A stretch of 64,000 nucleotides of DNA, taken from Gammaproteobacteria bacterium. GTDB lineage: Bacteria; Pseudomonadota; Gammaproteobacteria; Ga0077536. The position numbers and the translations under genes were made by a program. Shown here in pieces: positions 32,130-61,648 of this stretch (position 1 is its first letter; the number at the start of each line of letters is the position of its first letter). Location: positions 1,888,001 through 1,952,000 of the forward strand of contig CAXXLL010000003.1 in assembly GCA_963662545.2 (NCBI GenBank). The letters run 5' to 3'. Under the pieces are notes generated by a model. It searched no databases. It was not told the DNA's origin and saw only the letters and a list, made by a program, of their open reading frames with translations.

Positions 32130-32349
32130 CATATCGCCAGACGGTATTTGGCTTCTCTATGCAGACGAGGAGCTATTTATGCCGTTTGATGAGTTTCCGT
32201 GGTTTAAGAAGGCTTCGGTCGAACAGATCTTGAATGTTGTCGAAGAACAACCGGGGACATTTCACTGGCCAGATCTTGACATTGATCTGGGGCTCGATTC
32301 GATCCGTAATCCTGGCCATTACCCATTAAAAGCAAAAACCGACGCTTAG
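32083..32349 (+). CDS. Cassette: DUF2442 protein (putative antitoxin)
   Basis: FPWF..AS..., HWPDLDIDL; overlaps the DUF4160 gene. Confidence 0.82.
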   Translation: MNSSQPGANTSTVVTDISPDGIWLLYADEELFMPFDEFPWFKKASVEQILNVVEEQPGTFHWPDLDIDLGLDSIRNPGHYPLKAKTDA

Positions 32350-32397
32350 ATTCCCGAGCGTAGCGCAACCGCACCTAACAAATGGATCAACCGGACG

Positions 32398-33654
32398 TGA
32401 TAGTTCCTACGGTTTAGTGGACACCCTGAACTAACTATTCAGGAGTGTTCCAAGATGCCAAAACCAGGCCCGAGAACGACGTATAAATACAGCGACGAAT
32501 TCAAAGCGACAGCGGTCCGCTTAAGTGAACTGCCGGATGTAGCCATCCAGGATGTCGCTGCGTCTCTTTACATTCACCCCTTCATGTTGTCTCGTTGGCG
32601 CAAACAAGTGCGCGAGGGAATGATCATGGCTAGAGGTGTGGAAATCGATAAAGAAACAGCGGCGGAGCTGAAAGCGCTGCGTCAGATGAAGAAGGACTAC
32701 GAGCGTCTAAAAGTGGAGCATGACCTTTTAAAAAAAGCGATCGAGTTCACTTCCAAACGAAAAGCGATGTCTTCGCGTTCATCGACTACCACGTCAAAGA
32801 AGGGATCTCGGTGACGACGATGTGTGCGTTATACGACGTGAGTTCCAGTGGTTATTACGCCTGGCGGAAACGCCCGCGCAGTCAGCGCTCGATTGAGGAC
32901 GAGGCGCTGTTGGTTGAGATCCGCGAGGCGCATGCGCTGGGCCGGAAGACCTATGGGAGTCCGCGTGTACACGAGGTCTTGTTGCAGCGCGGGAGGAAGG
33001 TCGGGCGACGCCGGATCGAACGATTGATGCGGGAAAATGGCATTCGCGGGTGCTCAGCCGACCAGTACCGTCGCACGCCTGGCCTGGACCGCTTCTTTGG
33101 TGTGATCGGCAATCGTATACACAAGATGCCGGTGACGGCACCCGACCAGGTGTGGGTCTCGGATGTGACCTATGTGAAGGTCAACGCTGAGTGGCGCTAT
33201 CTGTCGGTGGTAATGGATCGGTACTCACGTCGCGTATTGGGTTGGTCATTGGGGCCTGAGAAGACGGCAGCATTGACCGGTCGGGCGTTGCACCAAGCTT
33301 TGAAGCTGAGGCGGCCACCGGCGGGGACCGTATTTCACAGTGACCGCGGTTCAGAATATGTGGCTAGCCACCTGCAGGCTGCGCTGGGTAAGGCGAAGTT
33401 GGTCCCGAGTATGAATCGCCGGCGTCGGATGACGGACAATGCCCATATGGAGTCATGGAATAAGACGATGAAGTCCGACATGTACCACCGACGCCTGTTC
33501 AGCAGTGACAAACAGCTGCGCGATTCACTGCGTTCCTACATCGACTTCTATAATCGGGTGAGACTACACTCGTCTTTAGGATATCAATCACCGATAGCGT
33601 TTGAGCAAGCATGCAGCTAACTTATGGGTGTCCACTTTTTCGTAGGAACTCCCC
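32398..33654 (+). mobile_element. IS3-family IS inserted in attC (orfA 32455-32814, orfB 32811-33620)
   Basis: IRs TGATAGTTCCTACGGTTTAGTGGACACCC / GGGTGTCCACTTTTTCGTAGGAACTCCCC; TTTAAAAAAAG frameshift site; WVSDVTY, HSDRG, DNAHMES. Confidence 0.92.
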
Positions 33655-33810
33655 GCGGTACAGCAGGCTCCTTTGGGCCGGCTTCGCATTTTCGCCCCAA
33701 AGGAGCTGCTGTAACACACAGGTTATCCTAGCGTTAGGTGCTCCGGCGCGGACGTTACGGTGGATAAATTTCGAATGGCGCGATATCGAGCTGTATGCTA
33801 AGTTCAGTGC

Positions 33811-34026
33811 ATGAAAATCTCAGCCGCAGATACACTAGATATACCGATTCGGGAACGAATTCAGCTCGTTGCTGACATTTGGGAGAGCATCGCCGAATTT
33901 CCAGACGAGATCGAGCTTTCGGGAGCCACGCGGGAACTACTCCGAAAGCGATTGGAAGCGTATCGAGCAAATCCAAACGCCGGGTCCCCTTGGGAAGAGG
34001 TTAAGAATCGAATTTTGTCTAGATGA
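33811..34026 (+). CDS. Cassette: addiction module antitoxin (TIGR02574-like)
   Basis: ERIQLVADIWESI...WEEVKNRI; coupled to a ParE gene. Confidence 0.82.
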   Translation: MKISAADTLDIPIRERIQLVADIWESIAEFPDEIELSGATRELLRKRLEAYRANPNAGSPWEEVKNRILSR

Positions 34027-34331
34027 GCCGCTCGCTCATCGTCGAACCAGAAGCCGAAACAGATATCTTGGACGGCTATATCTGGTACGAAAACCGAGAA
34101 GAAGGACTTGGATCGAGGTTTATCGAAGAACTTGAGTCCGCATTCAATCGGGTCGCCGCGAACCCTATGTCCTACCAGGAGGCAGAACCAGATATCAGAC
34201 GGTCCGTGACCCACGTTTTCCCGTATCTAGTATTCTTCTCCTTCGATGACGATGCAGTTTATGTGCTGGCTGTCATTCCAGCGTCCCAAAATCCTGATTA
34301 CATCAACGCGCGCCTTGAAGCTCTTGGCTAA
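34023..34331 (+). CDS. Cassette: RelE/ParE toxin
   Basis: EAETDI...WYE...GLGSRF, FPYLVFF. Confidence 0.85.
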   Translation: MSRSLIVEPEAETDILDGYIWYENREEGLGSRFIEELESAFNRVAANPMSYQEAEPDIRRSVTHVFPYLVFFSFDDDAVYVLAVIPASQNPDYINARLEALG

Positions 34332-34551
34332 GGTTAATTCGCAAATCCACCCAATGTGTTCCAGGGACGATCCCGCACCTAACAAGTGGATCAACCGGAC
34401 GTGTTACAGCGCGCTTGTTTGGGCCGGCGTCGCATTTTCGTCCCAAACAAGCGCGCTGTAACGCGCCGGTTATCCTGGCGTTAGGTATTTTGGCAGGAAA
34501 CACTAGCGGCCGGGTGCTAACATTTACGATCAAGTGACGAAGGAGACGTCA

Positions 34552-35195
34552 ATGAAGATTCGTTCCACCGCAATCCTTGCGTCGATATTACTTGCTGGCA
34601 CACATCTCCCCGTCAGCGCCATTTATCTAAATGACCAGAATATTTTGGTTGCTCTCGGTTCTAGCATGTCTGCCGAGCCGTTTCAGAATCAAACTACCGC
34701 GGTTTCGCTGGCGAAGATCGATGCTCCAAACGCCGCAGCGTCTGAAAACCATGTCAGCCCAACAACCCACGTATGGGTGAGTGGCGGATCGCTGGAACTA
34801 GATTTTGATTTCGGCGTTGATGATCGCTCGAACTAGATTTTGACCATGACCTCACCATCCATTTCTGGAATTATCATTCAGAGGCGTTCGATGTTGACGA
34901 TATTGACTTCGTATTCCGCGATTCGTCTAGCAACATCGTCGGGAGCGTTCTAAATCTCAACCCCCAAGTTGGTGGCGGGGGGAGCAATCCTATATTCGCA
35001 GAAGATTTCGCATTGCAATTTCCATTGAATGTTCGGTTCGTGAATGTAGTGCTTTCCGGGTCGAACGGAGAGGTGGACTTTAACAACATAGGTTTTACAG
35101 GGGACATATCTGTCATTCCAATTCCGGCCTCGATATTCCTGCTGGCCTCTGGGATCTTAGGGATAAATGTAACCACCAAACGAAGAAGAACTTGA
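34552..35195 (+). pseudogene. Cassette: secreted protein with PEP-CTERM/VPLPA-CTERM-like anchor, frameshifted
   Basis: Signal peptide in ORF 34534-34836; C-terminus IPIPASIFLLASGILG..KRRRT; split by an imperfect duplication at 34787-34843. Confidence 0.7.
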
Positions 35196-36281
35196 ATTCA
35201 AGCGTGAAGTGCAACACGGGTAATTAGAGTCCTGCATAGATTTGCTCCGGTGTTTTGTATCCGAGTCGCTTTCTCGGACGTGTGTTGAGCTTCCTAGCGA
35301 TCGCATCGCATTCGTTTTGGGTAAGGTTCGCCATGCTTCTGCCCTTCGGCAGATACTGGCGTATCAAGCCGTTGGCATTCTCGTTCGTTCCGCGCTCCCA
35401 GGAATGATAAGGGGTGGCGAAATAGAAGGCGGCACCGGTGCGTTTTTCAATCGCGTCGTATTGGTGAAACTCGGTGCCATTGTCGGCGGTAACGGTACGC
35501 ACCCTGCGGGCCTCACGGTTAATCAGTTTGATCATGGCTCGATTGAGCTCGGCAGTGGTTCGCGCTTTGAGCTTACCGATGGCAACGAGTCCGGACTTGC
35601 GCTCGACCAGAGTCGCGATGCAATGGAGATCGCGACCGCCCATGACCGTATCACCCTCCCAATGTCCTATTCGGGATCGATTCTCCGCACCCGGTGGGCG
35701 CTGCGAAATATGACGTTTCCCCGGTAATACGCCTCGAGAATCGACCGAGCCGTAGCGTTTGCGCCATTTCTTGGTGGCCTGCCGAAGGTGGGTATAGAGG
35801 TATCCGCCTTCGTAATGGTCGTACCAGATGAACCGGTAAATAGTCTCGTGGCTGATAGCGCACACACGCCACAAGCGCAACCAGCCCGAGATCTGCTCTG
35901 GGCTCCATTCTAGCCGCACCAAAGCGCTGATCATTTGCAGCTGCCAGTCGGCAAACTGCCATTTTCTTCGTGATTCTCGCCGCCGGCGCCGGGTTCTGCT
36001 GTCTGCCTTGAAGGCGCGATAATCCCCGTCTTTGCACAGGTTTCTCTGCACTTCGCGCATCACCGTACTACGGTGGCGGCCGATGGCACGCCCGACCTCA
36101 GAATAGTTAAGTCCTTGCCAAAGCAGCGCCGCGATCTTATACCTCTCATCAGAGGTGATCTGGTGGTACCTCATCGTGGGTATCCTCTTCTTGCCGGAAA
36201 AGAATGCTTAAGAGTATCCCAGCTCGCTTCGTTTAACGCGATAGACGGAATTTCATGTGTTGCATTTACTTTGTGAATCCG
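35193..36281 (-). mobile_element. IS30-family IS, intact (transposase 35224-36174)
   Basis: WSPEQI, GHWEGD, ADNGTEF, PYHSWERGTNEN; IRs TGAATTCAAGCGTGAAGTGCAACAC / GTGTTGCATTTACTTTGTGAATCCG. Confidence 0.93.
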
Positions 36282-36412
36282 CCTCACCTAACAAATGGAT
36301 CAACCTGACGTGTTACAGCAGGCTCCTTTCCAGCGGCTTCGCATTTTCGCCTCCAAGAAGCCTGCTGTAACACGCAGGTTATCCTGGCGTTAGGTGTCGC
36401 CAGGAAACTCAA

Positions 36413-38324
36413 ATGAAATGGGAACTAATTGGCGCGTACGCAGAAGTCATCGGGGCTATAGCGGTCATCGTTTCAATCCTTTACCTCGCGTTACAGGTGC
36501 GCGACAACACTCGCTCAGTTAGGGCCAACGCAGGTTTCGAAGCCGCGCATTCTTGGGCAATCTCTAACGAGATCTTGTATCAAGCGCCAGAGAAGGACCG
36601 GATGGTTTTTGCGCGGGCGTTCGATCTCGGAGAATCGGTAGACAAGTTTTCTGAGAGCGAGCGAATCCACATCAGTATCTTGATGCGGTCATTATTTGAA
36701 AAACTCGAAGGGCAATACTATTTGTTGGGTCTACGCGGATTCATGTGGGTAAATTCTGAATTAGACCAAGTGTAAACCATTGAAATCATGTAGACATTCA
36801 GAGATTTCGTATGGGGTGAAAGTGGTTTCATTTTGTGGGTAGGCTAAGGCCATGAAGAATCCCAAGTCGATCCGAGCGCTGTTTGCGTTCCCTGGTTTTA
36901 CCGCCGCATCGAAATTGGTGGGCATGTTTGGTGATCGGTATGCCCGTGTGATCCAACTCAAGAGGCGAAAAAAACAGCGATCTGTTCTCACTGTGCTCAC
37001 CGGTGCCGCGGGCGTTACGACAAGAAGGTGCTGCGAGTACGAGACCTGTCAGTTGCCGGATGGCGAATCTACCTGGAGTTCGAACGCTGGCGTGTCAGTT
37101 GCCGGAGGTGCGGCGGCGTGCAGGTAGAACATCTTGACTGGCTGGCAAAGAACCCTCGCTATACGCAGCGCTTTGCCATGCAGGTGGGCAAGCTGTGCCG
37201 GGACATGCCGAACCAGGCTGTCGCCGAGAGGGAACGCCTGCACCACAGCACGGTGAAAGACCTCGATAAGCTGTACATGCAAAAGCAGGTTGAGCTGGCG
37301 GGCATGCCAGCACCCCGGGCCATCGGTATTGATGAGATCTCCATCCGCAAAGGACATAACTACCGGGTCATCGTCAGTGACCTGGATCGGGGGCGTCCTA
37401 TCTGGGTCGGTGGTGAAGGTCGCAAAGAGGCTGACATCGACCTGTTTTTCCAGGCATTGGGCGAGAACAAGAGCGCTCGCATCGAACTGGCGGCGATGGA
37501 CATGTGGAAGCCGTTCCGTAACTCGGTCATGAACAACGCACCGCAGGCGCGGATCATCTATGACAAGTTCCATATCATGCGCCACCTCTCAAAGGCTCTC
37601 GATGAAGTCCGGCGCCGTGAATACAAACGTCTCCGCGGCAAGGACAGGAGTTACATCAAAGGCCAGCGATATACCTTGCTCTCGCGACGCGAGAACCTGA
37701 ATCTGGATGGCAGACGAGCCCTGAAAAAACTGCTCCAGGCCAACCGGCGTCTGAACACCGCCTACGTCCTCAAGGAAACCTTCGGCCAACTCTGGGACTA
37801 CCGTACCGAGCGCGGCGCGCGTGCCTTTTTCGAGCGCTGGAAGGACAGTCTGAAATGGCAGCGATTGGCGCCGTATCGCAAGTTTGCTGAGCTGATTGAA
37901 TCCCATTGGGATGGCATTGCTTCCTATTGTGATGCTAAGAATAAAGTCAGTCTTGGATTGGTCGAAGGGGTCAACAACAAAATCCGGGTCCTGCAACGAC
38001 GCGCCTATGGCTATCGTGATGAGGAATTCCTCAAACTGAAAATCATTGCGGCATTTCTTCCGCCACTACCCAGAAATGCCAATATCAACCCACACGTTTC
38101 CGCGTAGACCCTATTTGTTTAAATACGGTAGCCTCGATCAAGCGATTTGGGATATCCGAAAGGCATGGGCGGCAGGCGCGTTGCAAACTCCGTTCTTTCA
38201 AAAATGGTGGGAGGTGGAAAAGAGTCAAGGGATTTACTCGCCAGAATTCATCGAACTCATCGAAAAAGCGCGGCCGATTTCGATAGACGGGTTTGCGAAT
38301 GAAACGAGGCCACTCGATGCTTAG
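36413..38324 (+). pseudogene. Cassette: N-terminal-TM hypothetical protein (family A), interrupted by ISL3
   Basis: MKWELIGAYAEVIGAIAVIVSILYLALQVRDNT...EGQYYL | FKYGSLDQ...WW...YSPEF continues after the IS. Confidence 0.8.
36727..38111 (+). mobile_element. ISL3-family IS, copy 2
   Basis: Same ORFs and length as copy 1; 8-bp target duplication TATTTGTT. Confidence 0.95.
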
Positions 38325-38343
38325 ACTTCCAAGTGAAATGCAC

Positions 38344-39665
38344 TGAGCGGACCGGGAGAAAGGTAACAAAAGTGCCAAGGTAGATGGGTAACACTTTTGT
38401 TATCGATAATGTCGTTTTAGTCGGCCGTAAGCATCTTCGATCCGATTGTATTTTTCAATCATTCGGCCGAGCTTAAGCGTTCCGAAATAGACGTTCCAAA
38501 CACCACAGTCGATTTCCTCTAATCCTATGTACTCACCGGCACACGCGATTGAGACAGGCACATGGGTGGAATGCCATCGGATGCCACCGTTGGCACTGAC
38601 GAAGCGCTTGATGAAACGGTCAGGATATTCGAGCGGCGGGATTTTGCTAGGCATTTCTTTGGCAGAAAATTCGTAGAAGTCGGCAGGTGTGAACATGTCG
38701 AGCGCTTCATGAGGGCGTTCTTCATTGAATTCAATCTGGAACCGATTAAATCGTTTCTGTTGCGCGCGATAGTCCCCGGCCGGAGGTCGAGTCGTCTCCG
38801 CCTTTAAGGTTCGGTGCATCCGTTCGTGTCGGCCATTTTGTTGAGGCTTTCCGGGTTCGATGAGCTCGGGATAAATACCAAGCCTGATCCACCAGGCAGA
38901 CAGCGTTGATAATCGACCGAGCGTGTTCGTCGCGAAGGGGACGCCGTTGTCGGTACGGATGCGTTCTGGCAGTCCGTATTCTTTGAATAAGCGGGTGAAC
39001 ACCGCCTTCGATGGTTCAACGGCGGTCGTGAGTAATGACTGGCATCCGATGAGGTATCGACTAAAGCCATCGGTGACGGTCAACGGGTAACAATACCGCC
39101 CGTCTTCGGTCTTGAAATGCCCTTTGAAGTCGGCGCCCCAGGTTTGGTTGGGTGCATTCATTCGGGTTTCAGGTTTTCCCGGATGCCCGAGTTTGCGTGA
39201 GCGCCGCGGTGTCCGGATGAATCCTTCACGGATTAGGATGTCATGAATGGTTGTCCGTGTTGGCCACGGCTCTCGCGGGTGCTTCCGCGATAGAAACGTC
39301 CGCAATTTACGAGCGCCCCAAGTCGGATGACGTTGTCGCGCATCGATGATCAGGCGCTCGAGCCGCGCCGGCGTTTTATGCGGGCAAGTTCTAGGCCGCC
39401 GTGTGCGTTCCTCTAAACCCGCCGGACCTTCGCTTAGATACCGATCAATCCATTTGTAGCCAGTCTTGCGACTGATGCCGTAATGTTCGCACAGCTCGGT
39501 AACTGTCAACAGGTCGCGCAGATAGTCTGCGATGAATTGCGTTTTTTCGTTCATTGGTGACGTTTCTCTCCAGGGCATCGGACTCCTCCTTTGAGGAACC
39601 TAATACCATTGATCTGTCACCCATGTACCTTGACTATAATGTTACCTATCTACCCGGTCCGTACC
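38344..39665 (-). mobile_element. IS481-family IS, copy 2, complete (transposase 38400-39578)
   Basis: Same protein as copy 1; ends carry repeated CGGACCGGG..GGTAACA boxes; exact tips uncertain by 1-2 bp. Confidence 0.9.
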
Positions 39666-39793
39666 CACCATTCACCTAACAAACGGATCAACCTGACGTG
39701 TTACAGCGCGCTTCTTTAGGTCGGCTGCGCATTTTCGCCCAAAAGAAGCGCGCTGTAACACGCCGGTTATCCTGGCGTTAGGTGGCAGGGAAA

Positions 39794-40259
39794 ATGAGTC
39801 CGACCGTATTTCGTGAAAAGGGTTACAGGTTTTTCTTTTTCTCCCTGTAAGAGTCACGAACTCATGTTCACGTGAGGCCCCAAGCCGGCGAGGCGAAGTT
39901 TTGGCTAGAGCCAGATATCGAATTGGCGAGAAATCACCGGTTATCCCAAGTACAATTGAATGAAGTCCAAGCCATCGTCGAGGCACGGAAAGATGAACTC
40001 ATCGCAGCCTGGCGCGAACACTTCGACAGTAGTAACTGACATATCGCCAGACGGTATTTGGCTTCTCTATGCAGAAGAGGAGCTATTTATGCCGTTTGAT
40101 GAGTTTCCGTGGTTTAAGAAGGCTTCGGTCGAACAGATCTTGAATGTTGTCGAAGAACAACCGGGGACATTTCACTGGCCAGATCTTGACATTGATCTGG
40201 GGCTCGATTCGATCCGTAATCCTGGCCATTACCAATCTGGGGCTCGATTCGATCCGTAA
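39794..40259 (+). pseudogene. Cassette: degraded duplicate of the DUF4160/DUF2442 pair
   Basis: Near-identical to 31884-32349; GAA>TAA stop at about 39847; C-terminal tandem duplications. Confidence 0.85.
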
Positions 40260-40453
40260 TCCTGGCCATTAAGCGTTAAAAGCAAAAACCGACGCTTAGA
40301 TTCCCGAGCGCAAAAACCGACGCTTAGATTCCCGAGCGCAACCGCACCTAACAAATGGATCAACCTGACGTGTTACAGCAGGCTCCTTTGAGGCGGCTCC
40401 GCATTTTCGCCCCAAAGAAGCCTGCTGTAACACGCAGGTTATCCTAGCGTTAG

Positions 40454-40705
40454 GTGGCCGGGAACATAGATTTCGAAATTGTCGGTCCGATCCGTGACAT
40501 CGAGACCATTGCTAGCGGTACCGGTGTGACAATTCGCTCATCTCTCCGGAAAGCATACGGGCGAGGACGTTGGCGTAAAATGAAGGGTACCGCCACAGTT
40601 AAACTAGCGAACGGAACTGAACGCATCTTAGAATTGCATTGGTACGAGGCGCACGGAATTGGAAAGCGAGATCTCAAAATTAAGCGCTATTTAGACGACC
40701 TATGA
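40454..40705 (+). CDS. Cassette: small basic protein, putative toxin
   Basis: 83 aa; WRKMKG...ELHWYEAHGIGKRDLKIK; overlaps the next ORF. Confidence 0.7.
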   Translation: MAGNIDFEIVGPIRDIETIASGTGVTIRSSLRKAYGRGRWRKMKGTATVKLANGTERILELHWYEAHGIGKRDLKIKRYLDDL

Positions 40706-40938
40706 AACAACCATCGAAGCCATTCGCACTATGCATTAACAATGACGACTACAAAGCGTCATTAATACTCGGAAAGGTCTACCGGCTTATCCCAGATAGA
40801 GACGCTGCGAAGGACGATTTCGTTCGAATCGTGGATGAAAGTAGCGAGGACTATCTATATCACAGGGCGCATTTCGTCTTCGTCGATTTTCCACCAGCAG
40901 TACGAAAACGAATTCTTGAAATAGAAAGCGCCACTTAA
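40702..40938 (+). CDS. Cassette: small protein, putative immunity/antitoxin
   Basis: 78 aa; SLILGKVY...RIVDESSEDYLY. Confidence 0.7.
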   Translation: MKQPSKPFALCINNDDYKASLILGKVYRLIPDRDAAKDDFVRIVDESSEDYLYHRAHFVFVDFPPAVRKRILEIESAT

Positions 40939-41174
40939 GTTCACGATTGAAGTGGCTCAACAGCCCGCGGAAAGGTAAGAAAAATGTCCCGGGCTTCGTT
41001 AAACACCATTCACCTAACAAACGGATCAACCTGACGTGTTACAGCGCGCTTCTTTAAAGCGGCTTCGCATTTTCGCTCTAAAAAAGCGCGCTGTAACACG
41101 CCGGTTATACTAGCGTTAGGTCTCATTTCGACTCCGGTCTATACTTGTATTATCGGACGTGGAAGAGAAATCCT

Positions 41175-42809: not shown

Positions 42810-42851
42810 CGGCAAGGCGGAAACATCGACTTTATGCACCAAAATGCCGCC

Positions 42852-46620: not shown

Positions 46621-46643
46621 ACTTCGAAGCGAAGTGCATCACC

Positions 46644-52225: not shown

Positions 52226-52246
52226 TAACTAGAGAAATTCCCCTGT

Positions 52247-52708: not shown

Positions 52709-52745
52709 AAACCTTAGAAAAGGCAGAAACGCCTAACAAGGCGTT

Positions 52746-54082
52746 CTCAAGGATCCCCACGAATTAGGCATACTGAGCTTCGCAGATAACGAGTTGTTGT
52801 AACGTGATGAATGCGTCCTGGAGATCATGGCGAGATAGTTTGAATCGATGACTTCGCCAGAGTTCTTGTCCCAGGAAAGGAATGGATAGCACGGTTCGTT
52901 TGCGTTCGGTATTCGCCTGAAAATGCCGTGTCCACTGATTAGCTTTCGCTGCGAGCCCACACAACCACAGCAGCAGGGTTGCGAGCAGCGCGATGAGAAG
53001 CAGTACTTCAAGGCGCTGAGTATTCCTCGACCACGCATAGCGCAAACCGAAACCCCAGCGGTGGTTTTTGAGGTCTCTGAAAGCCTCTTCAATCTGCATG
53101 CGTTGTTGGTAAGCACGCACGACGGCCTTAGCGCTGTTTCGAGTATGCGGGAGAGAGGTTGCGAGCAGCCACGGTGAACGATGTAATCGACGGTAGAGCG
53201 CATCATTGGAGCCGTAACTTTTGCGCTGGGCATGTCGTCCGGTACGCGGCAGATAAGCCCGGAGCAGATATAAGCGACAGCGGTAACGGTGGCGTTTGGA
53301 GAGCAACCGCTCACCGATATGCCGAACCTTTGGTGTCGCCTGCGGGTAGAGTGAATGCACGTAACACCACCGCCCGGTCTCGGGTTTGAAGTACTTGATA
53401 GTGTTTCGGATACGGCCGATCCAATCCCACCCCAGGGCTTCGACCTGGCGGAACCAGGGTCCCCGGAAACCCGCATCGGTGACGACGACAGGGATGACGT
53501 TCTCGGGGACGATGTGGTGAAGCGCCTTCAAGAAGGCGCGATGGGTTTTGGGGCTGTTATAGCGACTGAGGGGGTGGACTTCCTCATACACCGTAATTGC
53601 ACGACCGCCGGCGGGCACGGCGGCTCTGAGGATGAGCATTTCACGGTCGAGTTCGCAGTCTGCCCAATCAACGACTATCAGTGGGCGCCGCACGGTGGAT
53701 AAGAGTGTCCGTGCAAAGGCCGCATAGAGTCCTCGACGTTCACGATGCAGATGGCGATTACCGAGCAGACGGTCGACGGCTTTGATGTGGTGTTTGACGA
53801 AGGCCGAACCCGATCGATGACGTCCCAAATGGGTTAAGGCCAGTTTGCCACCATCAAGCAGGGCGCCAACAACCCGAAGTGTGGCATCGAGCCGAGCCCG
53901 ATGCCCAATGACGCCATTGCACTCGCACCATTTTTTTAACAAGCTAATGCCGTGCATGCTGCTGCTCCTGATTGAAGTGATTGTGTGGTAACGACCATTA
54001 GATCAGGCAGCAGCAGGCACGTCGATCATCTAAAGGATTGAATTCGCTTCATGAAAAGTCCCAATTCGTGGGGATACCTCAG
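52746..54082 (-). mobile_element. IS4-family (IS10-like) IS inserted in attC (transposase 52764-53957)
   Basis: IRs CTCAAGGATCCCCACGAATT / AATTCGTGGGGATACCTCAG; 9-bp duplication CAAGGCGTT; VDW, TDAGF, Y..RMQIEEAFRDLK. Confidence 0.93.
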
Positions 54083-54101
54083 CAAGGCGTTGCAGCGGAC
54101 A

Positions 54102-55357
54102 TGATAGTTCCTACGGTTTAGTGAACACCCTGACCTAACCAGTCAGGAGTGTTCAAAATGCCAAAACCAGGTCCCAGAACGACTTACAAATACAGCGAAC
54201 ATTTCAAAGCGACTGCGGTTCGTCTGAGCAATGTGTCAGGCGTAGAAGTGCAAGATGTCGCCGCGTCCCTTTACATCCATCCGTTCATGTTGTCTCGTTG
54301 GCGTAAGGAAGCTCGCGAGGGATTCATGATGTCTAAGGGTGTTGAGTTGGATAAGGAAGTCGTGGCTGAGTTGAAAGCACTGCGCAAGGTTAAGAAGGAT
54401 TATGAGCGGCTAAAGGTCGAGCATGACCTTTTAAAAAAAGCGATCGAGTTCACTTCGAAGCGAAAAGCGATGTCTTCGCGTTCATCGAGCACCAAGCCAA
54501 AGAAGGGGTCGCGGTAACGACGATGTGTGCACTGTATGAAGTGAGCACCAGTGGTTTCTACGCCTAGCGGCAGCGTCCAAAGAGCTGTCGTGCGGTAGAG
54601 AATGAACGGTTATTGGTCGAGATCCGCCAAGCCCACGCGGCGAGTTTGAAGACGTATGGGAGTCCTCGGATCCACGAGCGGCTAATACAAAATGGCGAAA
54701 CAGTGGGCCGCCGTCGAATTGAGCGCTTGATGCGAGAAAACGGTATACGTGGGTGTTCAGCCGACCAGTATCGACGTACGCCAGGGTTAAACCGATTCTT
54801 TGGCACGATTGATAACCGCGTTCACGCAATGACGGTGACCCGCCCCGATCAGGTGTGGGTTTCGGATGTCACGTATGTGAAGGTCAAGGGTGTGTGGCGA
54901 TACCTGGCGGCAGTGATAGATCGTTACTCTCGTCGGCTGTTGGGATGGGCGCTCGGTCATGAGAAGACGGCGGGTTTGACGCGTCGGGCATTGAGAAATG
55001 CGTTACGGCTGCGGCGGCCCCCACAGGGGACGATATTCCACAGTGATCGGGGCGCCGAATATGTAGCGAGTGGGATGCAGGATGCGCTGAGAGGAGCTGC
55101 CATGGTGCCGAGCATGAATCGCCGACGCCGGATGACGGACAATGCGCACATGGAATCATGGAACAAGACGATGAAATCAGATATGTATCATCGTCGGGTG
55201 TTCACGAGCGACAAACAGCTACGTGATGCGGTTCGTTCATACGTCGACTTCTACAACCGGGTGCGGCTACACTCGGCCTTGGGATATGTCTCGCCGATGG
55301 AATTCTAAGCCGCATGTACCTAACTAAAGGGTGTCCACTTTTTCGTAGGAACTCCCC
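54102..55357 (+). mobile_element. IS3-family IS (second isoform, degraded) inserted in attC
   Basis: Same IR type as 32398-33654; orfB has a TGG>TAG change at about 54565. Confidence 0.9.
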
Positions 55358-55451
55358 GTGTTACAGCGCGCTTCTTTGGGCCGGCTTTGTATTTTCGTTC
55401 CTAACAAGCGCGCTGTAACGCGCCGGTTATCCTAGCGTTGGGCGACTAAAA

Positions 55452-55482
55452 CGTTGCGTGATGCGCAACACGCGACTATAAT
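55452..55482 (+). promoter_or_regulatory. Cassette-internal sigma70 promoter with overlapping palindromic operator (higBA)
   Basis: TTGCGT-17bp-TATAAT; GTTGCG-TGATG-CGCAAC palindrome over the -35 box. Confidence 0.75.
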
Positions 55483-55488
55483 TATTAT

Positions 55489-55767
55489 GTGATCAGGAGC
55501 ATTCGCCACCGAGGCCTTAAGAATTTCTACGAGACAGGATCAAAAGCTGGTATCCAAACGTCTCAGATAAATCGTTTGAGAATGCTTCTAGCGGCACTTG
55601 ATACTGCACAACAGATCAATGATATGGATGTCCCAGGATTCGGGCCGCATACCCTAAAACGTAAGCTTAAAGGCCGCTGGTCAGTCGTCGTAGGTGGGAA
55701 TTGGAGGCTTACATTTGAGTTTCGAGATGGAGACGTCTATTTGTTAGGTTATGAGGACTATCACTAA
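55489..55767 (+). CDS. higB: Cassette: HigB/RelE-like toxin
   Basis: MIRSIRHRGLK, WSVVVGGNWRLTFEF, EDYH. Confidence 0.88.
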   Translation: MIRSIRHRGLKNFYETGSKAGIQTSQINRLRMLLAALDTAQQINDMDVPGFGPHTLKRKLKGRWSVVVGGNWRLTFEFRDGDVYLLGYEDYH

Positions 55768-56057
55768 TGGCTATGCATAACCCTCCTCACCCTGGAGAAT
55801 TTATTCGCGAGATCTATTTGGCACCGTATGATCTGAGCATTCGGAGTCTTGCTGAAAGTCTTGGGGTATCCGCCTCTACACTTGCCCGTGTAATTAGTGG
55901 CCAAAGTGGTATTAGTCCGGAAATGGCATTGCGTTTGTCGAAAGCCATCGGCCGGTCACCCGAGAGTTGGCTGGCTATGCAGCACAACTATGATCTTTGG
56001 CAAGCCCGAAAGGCTCTCGACCTTTCGCATGTCACCTCTATCGAATTTGCCGCGTAG
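55767..56057 (+). CDS. higA: Cassette: HigA antitoxin
   Basis: HNPPHPGE, ISPEMALRL, PESWLAMQ. Confidence 0.9.
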   Translation: MAMHNPPHPGEFIREIYLAPYDLSIRSLAESLGVSASTLARVISGQSGISPEMALRLSKAIGRSPESWLAMQHNYDLWQARKALDLSHVTSIEFAA

Positions 56058-56218
56058 ATGTCAACGTGAAATGCAATATTCGCCTAACAAATGGATCAGC
56101 CGGACGTGTTACAGCGCGCTCCTTTAGGTCGGCTCCGCATTTTCGCCCAAAAGAAGCGCGCTGTAACACGCCGGTCATCCCAGCGTTAAGTGTATTGAGA
56201 TCAAACCAAGGACATAAA

Positions 56219-56455
56219 GTGAAAACAATTAGTTGCAAACAACTAGGCGGCGCGTGCGATAAAGAGTTCCAGGCTGATTCTTTCGATGAAATCGCAGAAA
56301 TGAGCAAACAACATGGAAAAGAAATGTTTGAAAGAAATGATGAAGCTCACTTGAAAGCGATGAACGAAATGCGAGAACTCATGCAAAAGCCAGAAGCGAT
56401 GAAGGAATGGTTCGAGAATAAGAAAAAGGAGTTTGATGCGTTACCAGAAGATTAG
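56219..56455 (+). CDS. Cassette: DUF1059-like protein
   Basis: GTG start; KTISCKQLGGACD...H. Confidence 0.75.
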   Translation: MKTISCKQLGGACDKEFQADSFDEIAEMSKQHGKEMFERNDEAHLKAMNEMRELMQKPEAMKEWFENKKKEFDALPED

Positions 56456-56644
56456 ATGAGTGAGGGCATCAAACCATCCCATACAGATTCCAGAGAACTC
56501 CCAAACTATGAGAAATACACATAACAAGGCGCTCCAGCCGACAGCTTCCAGCGGGCTTTTCTTACGCAGCGTCCGCATTTTCGCTTCAGAAAAGCCCGCT
56601 GTAAGGCGCGGCTGAGCTTTGCGTTAGATGTACGAGAATTCGTT

Positions 56645-57109
56645 ATGAATTGGGACGCGACTGGAGCAATCGCCGACATAATCGGAGCAGCTGCGGTGGT
56701 AATAACGCTGGCATATTTGGCCGTGCAGATCCGTCAAAATACCAAAGCCGTGCGAGCATCCGCGCTCGACGCTAGCATCACTTCTTTTAACGGGGATCGA
56801 AGATCGATATACGAAAGCTCGGAACTTACACAAATATATATCCGAGGCATGGAAAACCACGAAAATCTTAGCGAGGATGAAATTCTCAGATTTCGACTAT
56901 TGATGCACAACAATATCTGGTGCGTTTGGAACATATATTCGCAAACTGAATTCGCTGGTCTTTCGCGTGGTACTTGGGAGGCGCAGAAGTCTCTTATCGT
57001 TCGAACTCTATCGGCCCCGGGCGGGGCTTGGTTTTGGCGAACATACAAGCACGAATTTGAAGGGTCATTTGAAAAGGAAATTGACCGAGTCCTACATGAA
57101 TCCACGTAG
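56645..57109 (+). CDS. Cassette: N-terminal-TM hypothetical protein (family A)
   Basis: MNWDATGAIADIIGAAAVVITLAYLAVQIRQNT...PGGAWFW. Confidence 0.8.
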   Translation: MNWDATGAIADIIGAAAVVITLAYLAVQIRQNTKAVRASALDASITSFNGDRRSIYESSELTQIYIRGMENHENLSEDEILRFRLLMHNNIWCVWNIYSQTEFAGLSRGTWEAQKSLIVRTLSAPGGAWFWRTYKHEFEGSFEKEIDRVLHEST

Positions 57110-57180
57110 ATTCACGACTGAAGCGGAACATCCGCCTAACAAATACATCAACCGGACGTGTTACAGGTGATCCCTACCTT

Positions 57181-57615
57181 CTAAGCGGGCGGCTTCATGT
57201 CCTCGGGCGCAACGTCACGGACGTGCTGGCCGAAGTACCAGTGATGCCCTTCTGGATCCTCGGCGCCGTAGCGTCGGTCGCCGTAAAACTGGTCCTGGGG
57301 TTCTTCGAGAATCGTCGCCCCCGCCCCCTTGGCGTGTTCGAAATGCTTGTCCACGTCGTCAACGTAGACGTAGAGTTGCTGAGTGACATGGCCGATTCGC
57401 TTGGGGTTCTGGTATTCCCGGCTGGGGCATCCGATCATGATGACCCCGTCGGCTAGCTCCATCTCCGCATGGTTGATCTTTCCGTCAGGCCCAGGAAGCC
57501 GCATGCGCTCCCGGAAGCCGGAGGCCTTGGCGAGCCAGTCCAGAGCGCTGGCAACGTCTTCATACAGGAGGTAAGGCGTGATGCGGGGCATGTTCTCCGG
57601 GGGATTCGCGGGCAT
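57181..57615 (-). CDS. Cassette (inverted): VOC/glyoxalase family protein
   Basis: ITPYLLYED, HAEM, DQFYGDR...DPEGHHW; GAGGAGG RBS. Confidence 0.9.
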   Translation of the reverse strand: MPANPPENMPRITPYLLYEDVASALDWLAKASGFRERMRLPGPDGKINHAEMELADGVIMIGCPSREYQNPKRIGHVTQQLYVYVDDVDKHFEHAKGAGATILEEPQDQFYGDRRYGAEDPEGHHWYFGQHVRDVAPEDMKPPA

Positions 57616-57680
57616 CAGATGTCCTCCTCGTGCGTCGGTCCGATACGTTTATCGTAACATCGGCCCCAGGGTCGCGCGCC

Positions 57681-57815
57681 ACCCAACAAGGGCATGCAGC
57701 TGACCGCCAACAGCGCGTTCCAATCGAGGTTTGGTAGCCTACGGGCATCAACCTTGGGTGCCTCAGCCACCGTCGGCGGCTTGTTGGCGGCAGCTGATGC
57801 CCATGTCCGTTAGGT
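57681..57815 (+). repeat. attC site, divergent 135-bp type
   Basis: ACCCAAC..GGCATGCAGCTGACCGCCAACA / TGTTGGCGGCAGCTGATGCC..GTTAGGT. Confidence 0.85.
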
Positions 57816-57831
57816 GGCAGCGGAGGTGGTG

Positions 57832-58455
57832 ATGGATCAGTCAGCTAAGCTTTGGGACAAAATAGCAGAACGCTATTCGAAACGACCTATCGCTGATGAA
57901 GCGGGTTACCAAAAAAAACTGCAGGTCACACGTGAATATTTTCGGTCGGACATGGAGGTATTGGAGTTTGGCTGCGGGACAGGGTCGACAGCCATCGCCC
58001 ATGCGCCTTATGTGAAGCATATTCAAGCGATTGATATCTCATCGAAAATGATTGAGATCGCCCGAGGCAAAGCTGACGCAAACAAAATCGAAAATGTCAC
58101 ATTTAGGCGCTCGACCATCGATGAATTGAGCATGAACGATCAAACCTTGGATGCAGTGTTGGGGCTCAGTATTTTGCACTTGCTGGACAACAAGGAAAAG
58201 GTAATCGCCAGGATTCACAAAATACTCAAACCGGGCGGCATTTTCGTCACAAGCACGGCGTGCATTGGAGATGCGATGAAGTTTTTTAAGATTGTCGCGC
58301 CGATTGGAAAATTCTTAGGTTTGATGTCGTTGGTCAAGGTCTTTACCACAAGAGAGTTGGAAGACAGTTTTACCGATGCCGGTTTTGAGATTGACTACCA
58401 ATCGCAACCGGGTAAAAACAAAGCAGTGTTTATAGTGGCGAAGAAGGTCGAGTAG
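57832..58455 (+). CDS. Cassette: class I SAM-dependent methyltransferase
   Basis: VLEFGCGTG, IDIS, LKPGG. Confidence 0.9.
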   Translation: MDQSAKLWDKIAERYSKRPIADEAGYQKKLQVTREYFRSDMEVLEFGCGTGSTAIAHAPYVKHIQAIDISSKMIEIARGKADANKIENVTFRRSTIDELSMNDQTLDAVLGLSILHLLDNKEKVIARIHKILKPGGIFVTSTACIGDAMKFFKIVAPIGKFLGLMSLVKVFTTRELEDSFTDAGFEIDYQSQPGKNKAVFIVAKKVE

Positions 58456-58503
58456 GAGCGATTAACTCCATATGCGGACATTGTGTTTACTTTAAAGAGT
58501 GCC

Positions 58504-58575
58504 ACCTAACAAATCGCTGCACGTGACGCCAAAACGCTTCGCGTTAATGTCGCAGGTGAGCTCAAGCCGTTAGGC
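58504..58575 (+). repeat. attC site, short 72-bp type
   Basis: ACCTAAC..GCTGCAC / GTGAGC..GTTAGGC. Confidence 0.8.
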
Positions 58576-58642
58576 GGCAATAAGAATTAGGCACTCACCT
58601 ACATTTAGCTAATCATACAATCCGAACCAGGGAGATCTCATT

Positions 58643-59077
58643 ATGGATATGGCGGAATTGGAACAGCGAATCACCCGACTCGAAGACATTGAGGCTATAA
58701 AGCAGCTCAAAGCTCTGTATTGCGAAATCTGCGACGACATGCACAACCCCGACAGAATCGCTTCGGTTTTTGCCGAAGATGCCATCTGGGAAAGCGCCGA
58801 TTTTGGCAAAGCCCAGGGCCATGACGCCATTCGCGAACTATTTCGTGGCTTCCAGAAGATGTTCAGTTTTTCTCAGCACAACATCATGAATCCGAGAATC
58901 GAAGTCAACGGGGACCGCGCTACAGGTATTTGGTACATCATGGGTCCATGGACGCATTCCGAAAATAACAGAGAGATCTGGATGACCGCGAGATATGACG
59001 ACGACTACGTGAAAATAGATGGCGAATGGAAATACCAACATTTAAGGGCAGCCGTTCGAATGATTGCCGATCGATGA
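58643..59077 (+). CDS. Cassette: SnoaL/NTF2-like protein
   Basis: LEDIEAIKQLKALYC..D, F.EDA.W, H...NP.I, Y.DDY. Confidence 0.85.
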   Translation: MDMAELEQRITRLEDIEAIKQLKALYCEICDDMHNPDRIASVFAEDAIWESADFGKAQGHDAIRELFRGFQKMFSFSQHNIMNPRIEVNGDRATGIWYIMGPWTHSENNREIWMTARYDDDYVKIDGEWKYQHLRAAVRMIADR

Positions 59078-59173
59078 GATGGCTACGGTAATAGAGGCCA
59101 AACACGCCGGTTATCCTAGCGTTAGGTCGCAGACCTTGATCATACTAAATACGGTATATGTACTTTATATAGT

Positions 59174-59455
59174 ATGTGGATAGTTTATGAGCATCGGCGG
59201 ATCAACAGAGCGGTAAAGTCCACCCCCGATGAAGTCCTGAAACGATATGAAAAATGGAAAGACATTTTAACGTTGTCAAGGCCGAAGGGACTTCGCCAAA
59301 TCAAGGGATTTCGAGACGAAGCTCTCAGCGGTGAATGGAAAGGCCATCGATCGTCAAGGCTCGGCCTTCAATACCGAGTCATATATAGGGTCGAAGCAGG
59401 TTCGGTGTTGGTATTTGTAATCGATCCGGTCGCCCACGATTACCGGAAGAAATGA
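59174..59455 (+). CDS. Cassette: RelE/YoeB-like toxin
   Basis: EALSGEWKGHRSSRL..QYRVIY, HDY. Confidence 0.82.
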   Translation: MWIVYEHRRINRAVKSTPDEVLKRYEKWKDILTLSRPKGLRQIKGFRDEALSGEWKGHRSSRLGLQYRVIYRVEAGSVLVFVIDPVAHDYRKK

Positions 59456-59456
59456 T

Positions 59457-59714
59457 ATGAAAGATTTCAAACGTGCAAAACGTCGGATTGAAGTGAGTGT
59501 AGGTGAGTCAGTGCGAATCCTCCGCGAGCTACAGAAAATGAGCCAAAACGAACTGTCCGCCGCGTGCGGTATTCCGCAGTCGACCATTTCGGCGATAGAG
59601 AACGATCGGATAAACCTAGGCGTTGAGCGTGCAAAACAGTTGGCACACGCCTTAAAGTGTCATCCGGCAATACTGGTATTTCCAGGATGGCAAATTGACG
59701 ATTATGCGGCTTAG
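59457..59714 (+). CDS. Cassette: XRE-HTH antitoxin
   Basis: LRELQKMSQNELS...QSTISAIEN. Confidence 0.88.
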   Translation: MKDFKRAKRRIEVSVGESVRILRELQKMSQNELSAACGIPQSTISAIENDRINLGVERAKQLAHALKCHPAILVFPGWQIDDYAA

Positions 59715-59726
59715 ATTTCCTAGCAA

Positions 59727-61423
59727 GTGTCCGTCCATAAACAGGCATTTTCTTCGATGGGCACGGAGAAATCGAGGTGTTGAAAGTAGGTTGTTGGAGC
59801 GGTAGCGGCGGTTCGGTGGGGGTCGAAGGGCTCTTCGAGCGTAATTGTGAGTACGTTCGCCGGCCGCAGAGCGCTGCAACCCAAAGTCGCCCGTTCGACG
59901 ATATCGAGGAGGTCAGTTAGTGCGAGTGAACGTCGCTATTCGAGTTGATAGCGCGCGAGCAGGCTGAGGTTGTAGGCGACCACAGAAGACCACACGTAGG
60001 CTTCGAAGTGCGGCAGGCTCTTCCAGGTGCAACGTGCCAATCCGTATGCACGCTTCAGGCAGGAGATACCGGCCTCGATGCCGGCGCGGAAGTTGCGCAA
60101 GCGTCGATAGACCCACTGACTCTTGACCATGTCGGCGATCGCGAGCCCGCGCTTCTTGTGGAAGGCAACGTCTTCGATGCCTTCTGCTTTCGCCGCCCGG
60201 AGATTGTCGAGGCTCGCATAGCCGCCATCGGCGGCGACCTGTCGTGGCATCGTCCCGTAGTGTGTTCGATGCCGTTCGAGCATCGGCATGAAGCGCTGAC
60301 TATCGACCGGATTGCCTCGCTCGATGACCACGTCGAGGATGAGGCCACTGCGCCCCGAAGCCAGATTGATTTTGTGTCCGTACTGAACGTCGCGCGCACC
60401 CTTTATGATGATGTCGGTATGCGGCTCGAACAAGCTCACGCACTTCTCGCTCGCGGGGACCTTCTCACCGCCGAACACCCGCCGCTCAGTTTGCGAAATC
60501 ACCTGCAGAACAAGTGTTTCGTAGTGCGCTACCTGCGCTAGCCAGTCCGGCAGTTCAACGCCGGTGACGCCCGGGCTCAGCAGCTGCTCACGTACCCTCG
60601 CTACCGCTTCCAAGGTTGAACGCGTCGCCCCAATCAAATCGCGATACAGACGTTGGCGTTGCTTCGCACCACGCGCATACCACAGCGCCCGCGCACGCTT
60701 CTTCGCCAATCGAGTGTGGTTCACGAAGCACAACTCCGGCGCGCCAGGCAACTCGCGCGCCTGTGCGAGCAGACGAACCACAACACGCACGCCATCCCAC
60801 AGCAGATGACTGTCGCTCGGCGCGTGGATGGCACTGTCCGTTACCGTGCTATCAATCCGTACACGCTGTGCCGGCTCAATGCGCGTCTCTTTCGCCGTCG
60901 CCAGCAGGGCGCGATGAATAGACTCCCACGTCGATACCTGGATCGCCGAGACCACCCGCTGTAAGGCAGACTTCTTCGGACGTTCATTACCCGGCAACCG
61001 GGCGAAGGCCTGAAAGCTCGCCGAGTCCTGCAGGTGAAAGGCCAGCTCCTCGTAACTCAATTGCCGGTGCTGCTTGAGCACCGCGCAGCGCAGCACCGAC
61101 TCCGCCGACAGTCCGCGTCGACCGGTGGGCTTCAAACCCCGCCGACACAGATCGTTCATGACCGGCGTGAGGACCTTGGGGTGAGCATCGAGCCACTCGG
61201 ACATGCCCTGCAGCTCTCGCCCCAGGTCATGGTCAGCAAACAGCTCGTATATACTCGCTTGGGCCGTGCGTTTCTGACGCATTCCCCCTCCTGTGGTGTC
61301 GATGATTGTGTGGAAAATCAGAGGTTTGAAGTTCCATTAGATCACGACCCACCGGAGGTTTCGATCCCTTAAGCGACAAATTTTCCTTTTTATTTCAACC
61401 GCATCGCGTTTAGGGATGCACAC
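59727..61423 (-). mobile_element. ISNCY/IS5-like IS, copy 2 (transposase 59936-61282)
   Basis: Same protein and length as copy 1; 6-bp duplication TAGCAA. Confidence 0.88.
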
Positions 61424-61648
61424 TAGCAAAGTGCAACGTCGACCTAACAAATGGATCAACCGGACGTATTACAGCGTGCTTGTTTGGGCCGGCGTCGCAT
61501 TTTCGTCCTAAAAGAGCCTGCTGTAACATGCAGGTTATCCTAGGTATATGGACCTCCCCTAAAATCAACACGCGTGTTTACATTTAATTGACTCCGGTTT
61601 GTATCTAACTCACGCCTTGAGGCCGACCGTTAAGGTTATCCTAGCGTT

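Follow-up and report, generated by a model that had tools for sequence, protein, structure and literature searches.

The 64,000-nucleotide stretch analysed here (the window; contig CAXXLL010000003.1 of a Gammaproteobacteria bacterium, assembly GCA_963662545.2) carries an array of integron gene cassettes in which unrelated genes are connected to their attC recombination sites by the same short spacer. This spacer is probably a solo terminal inverted repeat of a lineage of IS30-family insertion sequences (ISs) that homes to the 5' edge of attC. It is best described as the footprint of a hitherto undescribed attC-edge-specific IS30 lineage. The spacer marks insertions into existing cassettes and says nothing of how cassettes form; a role in cassette genesis, which the original prediction for this DNA had proposed, is not supported. 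Positions are those of the window, and positions prefixed C2 or C3 lie elsewhere in the same genome.

Identity of the spacer

The attC sites of the array consist of an R'' core (R-CCTAAC) and an R' core (GTTAGG), which bracket an imperfect palindrome. The spacer in front of them has a constant layout: it begins 2 nt before a stop-like triplet (C-K-T-A-G-A-T-T), ends with GCAACA-N, and is followed by 3 nt and then by CCTAAC. It had been predicted to start at the stop codons at 32347, 38322, 46618, 49582, 56055, 57107, and 59712. All seven positions are confirmed, and each is a TAG that closes an open frame of 94-194 codons. The shared spacer is thus real, but the repeat starts 2 nt 5' of the stop codon, and the complete unit is a repeat of about 27 nt plus 3 nt. 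At 38322, the spacer is present, but the frame of its cassette is interrupted upstream by an ISL3 element. The spacer at 59712 is interrupted by a 1.7-kb IS5-type element (~59726-61425) and reaches 15.0 bits with the matrix described below once this element is removed in silico. The cassettes carrying the spacer are indeed unrelated: they match DUF2442, DUF5615/PIN-like, HTH_3 (twice, once with HigB) and SnoaL, one has a weak match to CopG, and several have no family. The solo repeats of the window are the following, together with the open reading frames (ORFs) that they close.

32345..32373, plus strand: solo IS30-type repeat and spacer (14.6 bits), 27 nt before CCTAAC at 32374; TAG 32347 closes the DUF2442 ORF 32050-32349
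38320..38343, plus strand: solo repeat with its inner end cut by an IS481-like element (transposase 38400-39578); 11.8 bits; remaining spacer at 39666-39674
46616..46641, plus strand: solo repeat (17.6 bits); TAG 46618 closes a 158-aa ORF (46144-46620); IS30B copy 2 lies directly 3'
49580..49609, plus strand: solo repeat plus 3 nt (17.2 bits), 28 nt before CCTAAC; TAG 49582 closes the DUF5615/PIN-like ORF 49234-49584
56053..56082, plus strand: solo repeat plus 3 nt (20.2 bits); TAG 56055 closes the HigA-like HTH_3 ORF 55767-56057; HigB at 55489-55767
57105..57134, plus strand: solo repeat plus 3 nt (19.4 bits); TAG 57107 closes ORF 56645-57109
59710..59725, plus strand: outer half of a split solo repeat; TAG 59712 closes the HTH_3 ORF 59457-59714; the IS5-type element follows
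61426..61442, plus strand: inner half of the split solo repeat and spacer, adjoining the attC at 61443; 15.0 bits when rejoined

To avoid circularity, only the four ends that bound the two types of resident IS30 went into the scoring matrix. Scores of at least 14 bits are reached at 77 of 11,166,092 genome positions. At the fixed register of -28/-27 before CCTAAC, such a score is found in eight of the 49 attC sites with an intact 5' end, with 0.0007 expected, and the similarity of the spacer to the IS30 ends is therefore far above chance. The distance from the repeat to CCTAAC is 28 nt at seven of eight sites and 27 nt at one. The six intact solo repeats of the window score 11.8-20.2 bits, and the best matches genome-wide that are not ISs are almost all pre-attC spacers. 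Matches of at least 9 bits have no inverted partners, except for true IS ends. The spacer thus matches an IS end over its full length and in register, with neither a second repeat nor a transposase nearby. The spacer at 56055 is identical to the IS end CAGATGTCC...GCAACAG at 19 of 25 positions (counted by hand), as had been stated.

The annotated ends of IS30A of Escherichia coli K-12 read TG-TAGATTCA...GCAACA on both sides, and the motif is in register with them over the entire repeat. IS30 copies with the same layout are also present in other genomes of the phylum, for example in G275 and G360 as two ends separated by about 1 kb (one end with TAG, the other with TGG) and in G161 as 46 matches; the ends inspected in those genomes do not adjoin CCTAAC. 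The proposal that the spacer is a solo IS30 repeat is upheld by this agreement of a complete terminal repeat with the ends from E. coli and other genomes. The position of the tip is fixed by a 175-bp derivative (C2:1579644-1579818), which has CAT on both sides if the element begins 2 nt before TAG. A cryptic IS30-like end inside attC, as a possible partner for pairing with the solo repeat, was considered and rejected, as matrix means along 36 attC sites peak at -6.7 bits on the plus and -9.2 bits on the minus strand.

Genome-wide, 29 solo repeats were curated by hand by the author. Excluded were the ends of full IS30 copies and of 175-bp and ~280-bp derivatives, the ends of a distant IS30 type at C2:85858-87082 and look-alikes, C3:358585 (a duplicate of C3:908501), a slipped variant before the attC at 40347, and matches of at least 14 bits that are not followed by an attC-like sequence (e.g. 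C3:506480, C3:965240, and C2:229537). The IS-split repeat at 59712 and the repeat at 45782 (1.8 bits) were retained by alignment despite their low scores. The slipped variant belongs to a second DUF2442 cassette (39960-40259), which is 99.6% identical to the first over 277 nt (blastn). Its 3' end (40230-40346 compared with 32300-32373) contains slipped duplications of the ORF end and the solo repeat, and its stop codon now lies 90 nt before attC.

Homing of IS30 elements to the attC edge

Three full IS30 elements are located in the window.

35191..36283, minus strand: IS30A, intact; transposase 35224-36174; the distal tip gives TGA 35193, the proximal tip lies 3 nt before CCTAAC at 36287
42850..43938, minus strand: IS30B copy 1; transposase with a stop at codon 92; proximal tip 3 nt before CCTAAC at 43942
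46642..47731, minus strand: IS30B copy 2, between the solo repeat 46616..46641 and an attC (CCTAAC at 47735)

The IS30A transposase (316 aa) matches NF033563 with 291.4 bits, the cut-off being 80, and contains the Pfam domains HTH_38 and rve. The IS30B transposase is 64.6% identical over 316 aa and has one in-frame stop. Both types have terminal inverted repeats of about 26 bp that align with the ends of E. coli IS30A from the tip to GCAACA. Target duplications of 2-3 bp, as in the IS30 family, are seen as CCA at the filled site C3:357488 and as CAT at the 175-bp derivative.

A tblastn search with the IS30A transposase detected five full copies in the genome, one of type A and four of type B. 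Each is 112-113 nt away from the 5' end of an attC, all five share one orientation, and the proximal repeat is 3 nt before CCTAAC in every case. The sole distant IS30 (33% identity) is located 346 kb from the nearest attC. A natural pair of sites is provided by a 1.4-kb segment that occurs twice, with an empty site at C3:908473 and a filled one at C3:357488, where 1,088 nt of IS30B are inserted directly before CCTAAC and flanked by CCA on both sides. The insertion point of these attC-associated elements is located in the R'' inverse core, after the purine and before CCTAAC; the distal end always faces the ORF, and the transposase gene runs opposite to the cassettes.

The right-hand attC sites of IS30A and three IS30B copies are near-identical up to R' and divergent beyond it. 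The four IS30B copies (window 42883-43830 and 46675-47622; C2:1162186-1163130; C3:357601-358545) share a single stop at codon 92 (..EEWSP*QVSD..); they are otherwise full-length and are spread over four sites. Their spread might be due to IS30A acting in trans or to read-through of the stop at codon 92. No end-to-end IS joint indicative of a circle was seen in the contigs of four sequencing runs, which is no evidence of absence.

Origin of the in-frame stop codon

Eight different cassette ORFs without the repeat (92-198 codons) stop at the TAA inside R'', and the last codon is ACC or GCC in all eight. These stops are located at 42360-42362, 45245-45247, and 50352-50354 in the window and at C2:991239, 992910, 995547, 1163829, and 2113175. 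The start of attC falls within the last codon of many genes in this integron.

If an IS30 end were placed between R and CCTAAC, R-CC-TAA-C would become R-CK-TAG. The tip C-K-T-A-G would substitute for C-C-T-A-A, by which the frame would be kept, the last residue would still be Ala or Thr, and the stop would follow immediately. Unrelated genes seem to share a stop-codon spacer because the IS tip replaces the R'' TAA of ORFs that already stop there. As tip replacement can explain the in-frame stop, gene capture is not required.

Among the 29 curated solo repeats, 16 close a frame of at least 70 codons, and in 14 of these 16 flush ORFs the last codon is GCT, GCG, ACT, ACG, or ACC. The stop-like triplet is TAG in 16, TGA in six, and TAA in three of the 29 repeats. 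A purine precedes C-K in 24 of the 29, whether they are flush or not (hand count), which is expected of a former R'' edge. In 12 others, the end of a long frame lies 11-197 nt upstream, except for one that lies 12 nt downstream. The ratio of flush to non-flush ends among cassettes with a solo repeat (16:12) does not differ from that of R''-TAA to other ends among cassettes without one (8:13; Fisher P=0.25).

The C-termini of the encoded proteins look natural as far as they can be judged. The match to SnoaL extends to the final profile position, which is reached at residue 147 of 151. The family of ORF 56645-57109 has variable tails in an alignment with 14 paralogues. The tip of IS30A itself provides the TGA at 35193 that closes a 123-codon open frame, as had been predicted; this frame has weak matches to the ends of several PEP-CTERM models (E 0.001-0.05, below cut-offs). 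A signal-peptide ORF (34534-34836) and the frame with the PEP-CTERM-like tail (to 35195) look like one gene with a frameshift near 34820-34860. Contigs of sequencing run X22 have small indels at this position.

Probable insertion into existing cassettes

Flanking nucleotides were compared for a set of 25 short solo repeats (14 of this genome, 11 of other loci). In 12 of these, the dinucleotide to the left of the repeat is identical to the one that precedes CCTAAC, compared with 6.6 by shuffled pairing (P=0.005), and all three flanking nucleotides agree in four, with 1.6 expected (P=0.06). Since flank identity is above chance, ORF and attC should already have been neighbours before insertion, at least for a good part of the cases. 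For these cases, flank identity argues against an IS that brought a foreign attC to a new gene.

This bears directly on the proposal that the spacer is a scar of cassette formation. According to this proposal, an IS30 beside attC links the attC to the 3' end of a gene that was not yet part of a cassette, whether through transposition-deletion or through recombination among IS copies, and is then lost, so that the solo repeat is a scar of the birth of the cassette. Some ORF-IS-attC joins are indeed not simple insertions, as IS30A abuts the 123-codon frame with flanks that differ (left GAA, right TCA) and IS30B copy 1 likewise lacks a matching duplication. About half of the solo repeats have no flank identity, and the near-identity, up to R', of the attC sites to the right of IS30A and three IS30B copies would also agree with a birth scar. 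Group IIC-attC introns, which lie between gene and attC in antisense, have likewise been put forward as joiners of genes and attC (PMC3001079). However, the left flank of the repeat ends in a purine and often follows CC as before a true R'', which fits a former attC edge better than a random gene end. Nearly all solo repeats stand beside an attC or a degenerate attC. The GC content of motif cassettes is cassette-like and not genome-like: 0.504 for ORFs of motif cassettes (n=7), 0.498 for those of R''-TAA cassettes (n=8), and 0.506 for those of other cassettes (n=20), compared with 0.581 for the genome.

A blastn search with the last 300 nt of 15 motif cassettes returned only duplicates and an ISL3 end, and when the cassette ORFs were searched with tblastn, no motif cassette had a close paralogue beyond the attC arrays. 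No non-cassette gene caught by an IS30-attC unit was found. IS copies at equivalent positions could recombine or convert one another, by which existing ORFs would be re-paired with attC sites and the intervening DNA would be deleted. The non-matching flanks, together with the near-identical right-hand attC sites, are read as recombination or gene conversion between IS copies. Such recombination between two cassettes accounts for non-matching flanks without a new gene. The R''-TAA stops, the share of flush ends, the flank identity, and the cassette-like GC content all fit insertion into existing cassettes, and an origin of the spacers as birth scars is considered unlikely.

Presumed loss of the IS body; derivatives and long units

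The solo repeat is always the transposase-distal repeat, with its tip facing the ORF. Relative to a full element, the missing DNA starts exactly at the inner edge of the distal repeat and includes everything up to the tip of the proximal one. The solo repeat would thus be the remainder after loss of the IS body and the attC-proximal repeat, and a repeat of ~27 nt together with a 2-3-nt duplication would be left. As a speculative but preferred guess, this loss could be caused by an aberrant first strand transfer, in which the proximal tip attacks the distal repeat at its inner instead of its outer edge, with subsequent sealing of the nick. Such a transfer would yield repeat and duplication on one strand. 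Asymmetric roles of the two ends are reported for related families in the PMC3299598 abstract. Subsequently, cassettes would carry the solo repeat along between integrons.

In addition to solo repeats, the genome contains long units, one of which may serve as an example.

40934..41012, plus strand: long unit, consisting of an IS30-type repeat with TAA 40936, ~30 nt, an ATGTCC..GGCTTCGTTAAAC block, and attC; one of nine in the genome

These units are about 80 nt long with constant ends and are found in nine cassettes (window 40934-41012 and 45782-45880; C2:1372507, C2:1373202, C2:1166573, C2:994932, C3:1524378, C3:1720675, and C3:2553392). Their conserved block has a homologous counterpart in IS30A and IS30B, 50-80 nt inward from the proximal end. 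Three of them follow related small membrane proteins (30-37% identity), and the others follow unrelated ORFs. IS30-derived miniatures with both repeats are also present, with lengths of 175 bp (C2:1579644-1579818 and C2:1168666-1168840) and ~280 bp (C2:1373202-1373480); one miniature copy has a clean 3-bp duplication at a non-attC site.

Distribution beyond this genome

In G017, a genome of another genus of the same family, an 84-aa ORF ending with TAG is followed by the repeat and then by GCTAAC. The pattern of repeat, 3 nt, and R-YYTAAC was searched in public collections; the pattern fixes the spacing, and constant spacing outside this genome is therefore not independent evidence. In 185,579 species genomes it yielded six loci, of which three are solo repeats beside attC (L057, L058, and L062, the latter with a 146-codon frame ending with GCG-TGA), one is an IS end, and two are unrelated genes. 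Metagenome contigs yielded 14 loci, comprising nine solo repeats before a CCTAAC-led sequence and five unrelated conserved genes. A GTTRRRY core follows 51-70 nt further on at five of these nine solo loci. The metagenome repeats of L063, L072, and L074 close frames of at least 205, 144, and 166 codons, respectively, and L075 has two repeats in tandem. A class-wide search with GAARTGCAACAN{3,5}YYTAAC in 401 genomes was discarded, as only six other genomes matched, five of them by chance and one at an IS end, and controls gave two matches. In G001 and G002 (same genus) and in G017, no attC of this type was found at up to 3 mismatches; these assemblies are partly incomplete, with repeats often missing.

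Alternatively, the 27-nt unit and its attC might be a module of single origin that was spread by homogenisation or attachment of attC, through gene conversion or cassette genesis, with the repeat as a passenger. The constant inner boundary and the constant spacing to CCTAAC in this genome agree with such a module, as do the long units with constant ends in nine copies, three of them after related small membrane proteins. Against this, one and the same repeat sub-type (..TTCACGACTGAA.. or ..CACATTTGAA..) adjoins clearly different attC types; since neighbouring attC types differ, the unit is not one module copied around. The repeat also accompanies unrelated attC families from other phyla and metagenomes, the tandem repeats of L075 look like repeated arrival at one site, and the flank identity fits insertion. 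A single-origin module is therefore improbable.

Possible functions of the repeat

Solo repeats might also be retained for a putative function, either as transposase-binding ends that make an attC and its cassette transposable or as landing or regulatory sites. Where present, the repeats are well preserved at the family-conserved positions, and few decayed forms are seen. Two of the four IS30B copies have a solo repeat immediately before them, and a long unit precedes a 175-bp derivative. According to PMC9333248, IS30 can excise any segment between a left and a right end. Detection by matrix or pattern is, however, biased to conserved copies, and in a test for compound units the 3 nt after the proximal tip of the downstream IS30 match the 3 nt to the left of the solo repeat in none of four window cases. 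Retention for such a function is accordingly given little weight.

Finally, the ends of IS30 might only resemble or target a motif of the host or the integron, either part of an extended attC or a site of protein binding; the original prediction had named a host motif as its alternative. This reading is hardly tenable: although the inner core GTGCAAC fits RYYYAAC at six of seven positions one helical turn before R'', the motif is present at only eight of 49 attC sites, attC itself scores poorly with the repeat matrix, and IS30-family ends match over the whole length including the tip, in E. coli as well as in genomes where the IS lies away from attC.

Points that weigh against a solo IS30 repeat

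Several observations weigh against the interpretation of the spacer as a solo repeat of an attC-homing IS30 lineage. Most solo repeats diverge in their middle part from the resident IS ends. A perfect 3-nt duplication is confined to four of the 25 solo repeats and to one of the five full copies, with a 2-nt match in three of the five; the remaining solo repeats (about half) and two of the five full copies show no flank match. The observed lengths are discrete (full elements, 175-bp and ~280-bp derivatives, long units of ~80 nt, and 27-nt solo repeats), which is odd for random decay, and the only ragged IS30 fragment seen is located at C2:2095487-2095631. The literature on E. coli IS30, as far as covered by the accessible part of PMC9333248, describes no product with one repeat and an IS-free state only by rare illegitimate recombination.

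In addition, no site was found that is occupied by a full IS in one genome and by a solo repeat in another. Contigs of four of 24 sequencing runs (X1, X2, X3, and X22), which were compared over 34300-36900, keep the IS junction at the IS30A site or break there. X22 and X1 cover the left IS30A junction unchanged, and neither an empty nor a solo state was seen, which is no evidence of absence. Joints in the run contigs that link different attC copies were set aside as repeat artefacts. IS30 relatives of the query were not found in three of the four other genomes with a solo repeat; these are metagenome-assembled genomes, in which ISs are often unassembled. Matches were found in G805 only, and the ends of these ISs are of another type. 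A solo repeat can travel with its cassette, so that carrier lineages free of IS30 fit either way.

The array and its other insertion sequences

The solo repeats are part of a cassette array of the following extent, for which one site is given as typical.

29899..61560, plus strand: attC cassette array without integrase (cluster of attC sites lacking an integrase, CALIN), heavily interrupted by ISs; from attC pattern matches and nhmmer loci
56083..56201, plus strand: typical attC, R'' GCCTAAC ... R' GTTAAG

A 26-nt attC 5' pattern with up to 3 mismatches has 21 matches in the window, with none expected. Genome-wide, an nhmmer profile detected 61 non-overlapping attC loci in 5.58 Mb, of which 49 have an intact 5' end. 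The bottom strand of 56055-56205 folds into a long imperfect hairpin (z=-5.57). The sites have R'' and R' cores of the forms RYYYAAC and GTTRRRY and form a tandem array, and an integrase is present in the genome. Two integron integrases exceed the TIGR02249 cut-off (C2:996723-997664 and C3:1527239-1528180), and the same search gave no match in the window. A fructose-bisphosphate aldolase and IS elements, not an integrase gene, are found to the left of the array. As the integrases lie elsewhere in the genome and none beside the array, it is termed a CALIN as defined by Cury et al. 2016 (PMC4889954). The conserved chromosome further to the left includes a 6S RNA gene (19598-19783) and a tRNA gene (15634-15705).

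The array is interrupted by ISs of the IS30 type and by IS481-like, IS110, IS3, ISL3, IS4, and IS5 elements. An ISL3 transposase gene followed by an IS481-like element is present twice (27533-29802 and 37028-39578). The first of these pairs delimits the array on its left, at the place expected for an integrase and attI. The IS481-like element (28624-29802 and 38400-39578) scores 220 bits, the cut-off being 224. Its right end lies 9-10 nt before CCTAAC at six attC sites (29899, 39675, C2:989365, C2:1167979, C2:2113789, and C3:1722079), and at several of its attC positions it has interrupted a solo IS30 repeat or a long unit. It looks like a second attC-edge-specific IS of the same genome. An IS110-family element (30616-31566, at attC 31765, and C2:1371997) adjoins attC sites that start with CCATAC instead of CCTAAC, with the same flank at both loci, and looks like an insertion of the IS1111-attC type. 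Its place within attC differs from that of the IS30 elements. Two identical 1.7-kb IS5-type elements (448-aa transposase) are located at 50528-52227 and 59726-61425; their flanks suggest a target of the CTAG/CTAA type.

Relation to known systems and significance

The IS1111-attC group of the IS110 family likewise inserts at attC in a site- and orientation-specific manner. Its members have a DEDD transposase and no classical terminal repeats, whereas the IS30 elements described here have a DDE/rve transposase, repeats of ~27 nt, and a 2-3-bp duplication. In contrast to the IS1111-attC group, they insert just outside R'' and leave solo repeats. Membership of the IS30 elements in this group was ruled out, as their transposase is of the DDE/rve and not the DEDD type; only the attC-targeting behaviour is alike. 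Group IIC-attC introns also lie between cassette gene and attC in antisense and are proposed to join genes and attC (PMC3001079 and PMC8876359). Unlike the IS30 elements, they are retroelements that insert into the attC bottom strand and have no terminal repeats and no such footprint.

E. coli IS30 has the same repeat architecture, with the tip 2 nt before TAGATTCA and the inner block GCAACA. PMC9333248 describes 26-bp repeats, a short duplication, and a marked target specificity, including orientation-specific insertion beside its own repeats. Known target sites of E. coli IS30 are its own repeats and palindromic hot spots; attC is not among them. The elements described here insert at the attC edge, have a transposase of 316 aa, and seem to have a 3-bp duplication. 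Their 175-bp non-autonomous derivatives are comparable to miniature inverted-repeat transposable elements (MITEs). The solo units themselves were ruled out as MITEs, since they have one repeat per unit instead of two. In the nearly precise excision of transposons such as Tn10, a short remnant of a transposon end stays at the old site; such remnants are palindromic and arise between direct repeats inside the inverted IS arms. Here, one complete single repeat is left, which is always the transposase-distal one.

No paper on IS30 targeting attC or on solo IS30 repeats in cassettes was found among titles and abstract openings, and the attC-homing elements found in the accessible literature comprise only IS1111-type ISs and group IIC introns. 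The IS30 lineage would thus be a third kind of attC-homing element, acting at a different point just outside R''. Going further, this lineage might constitute a second integron recombination system that supplies stop codons, leaves exact single-repeat footprints via a transposase-dependent reaction, re-pairs ORFs and attC sites by recombination or transposition-deletion between equivalently placed copies, and occasionally provides a gene without any cassette history with an attC, so that one route of cassette birth would become testable; this extension is speculative and rather unlikely.

How an IS of the copy-out-paste-in type leaves one exact terminal repeat is a problem posed by these footprints, and the IS30A transposase, its ends, and the natural empty and filled sites are concrete experimental substrates. 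A stop-codon spacer shared by unrelated genes mimics a birth scar and could mislead work on the origin of cassettes; here, it is explained by mimicry of the R'' TAA by the IS tip. For annotation, such repeats would flag old visits of IS30, and the last codon and the stop codon of many cassette genes would be derived from an IS.

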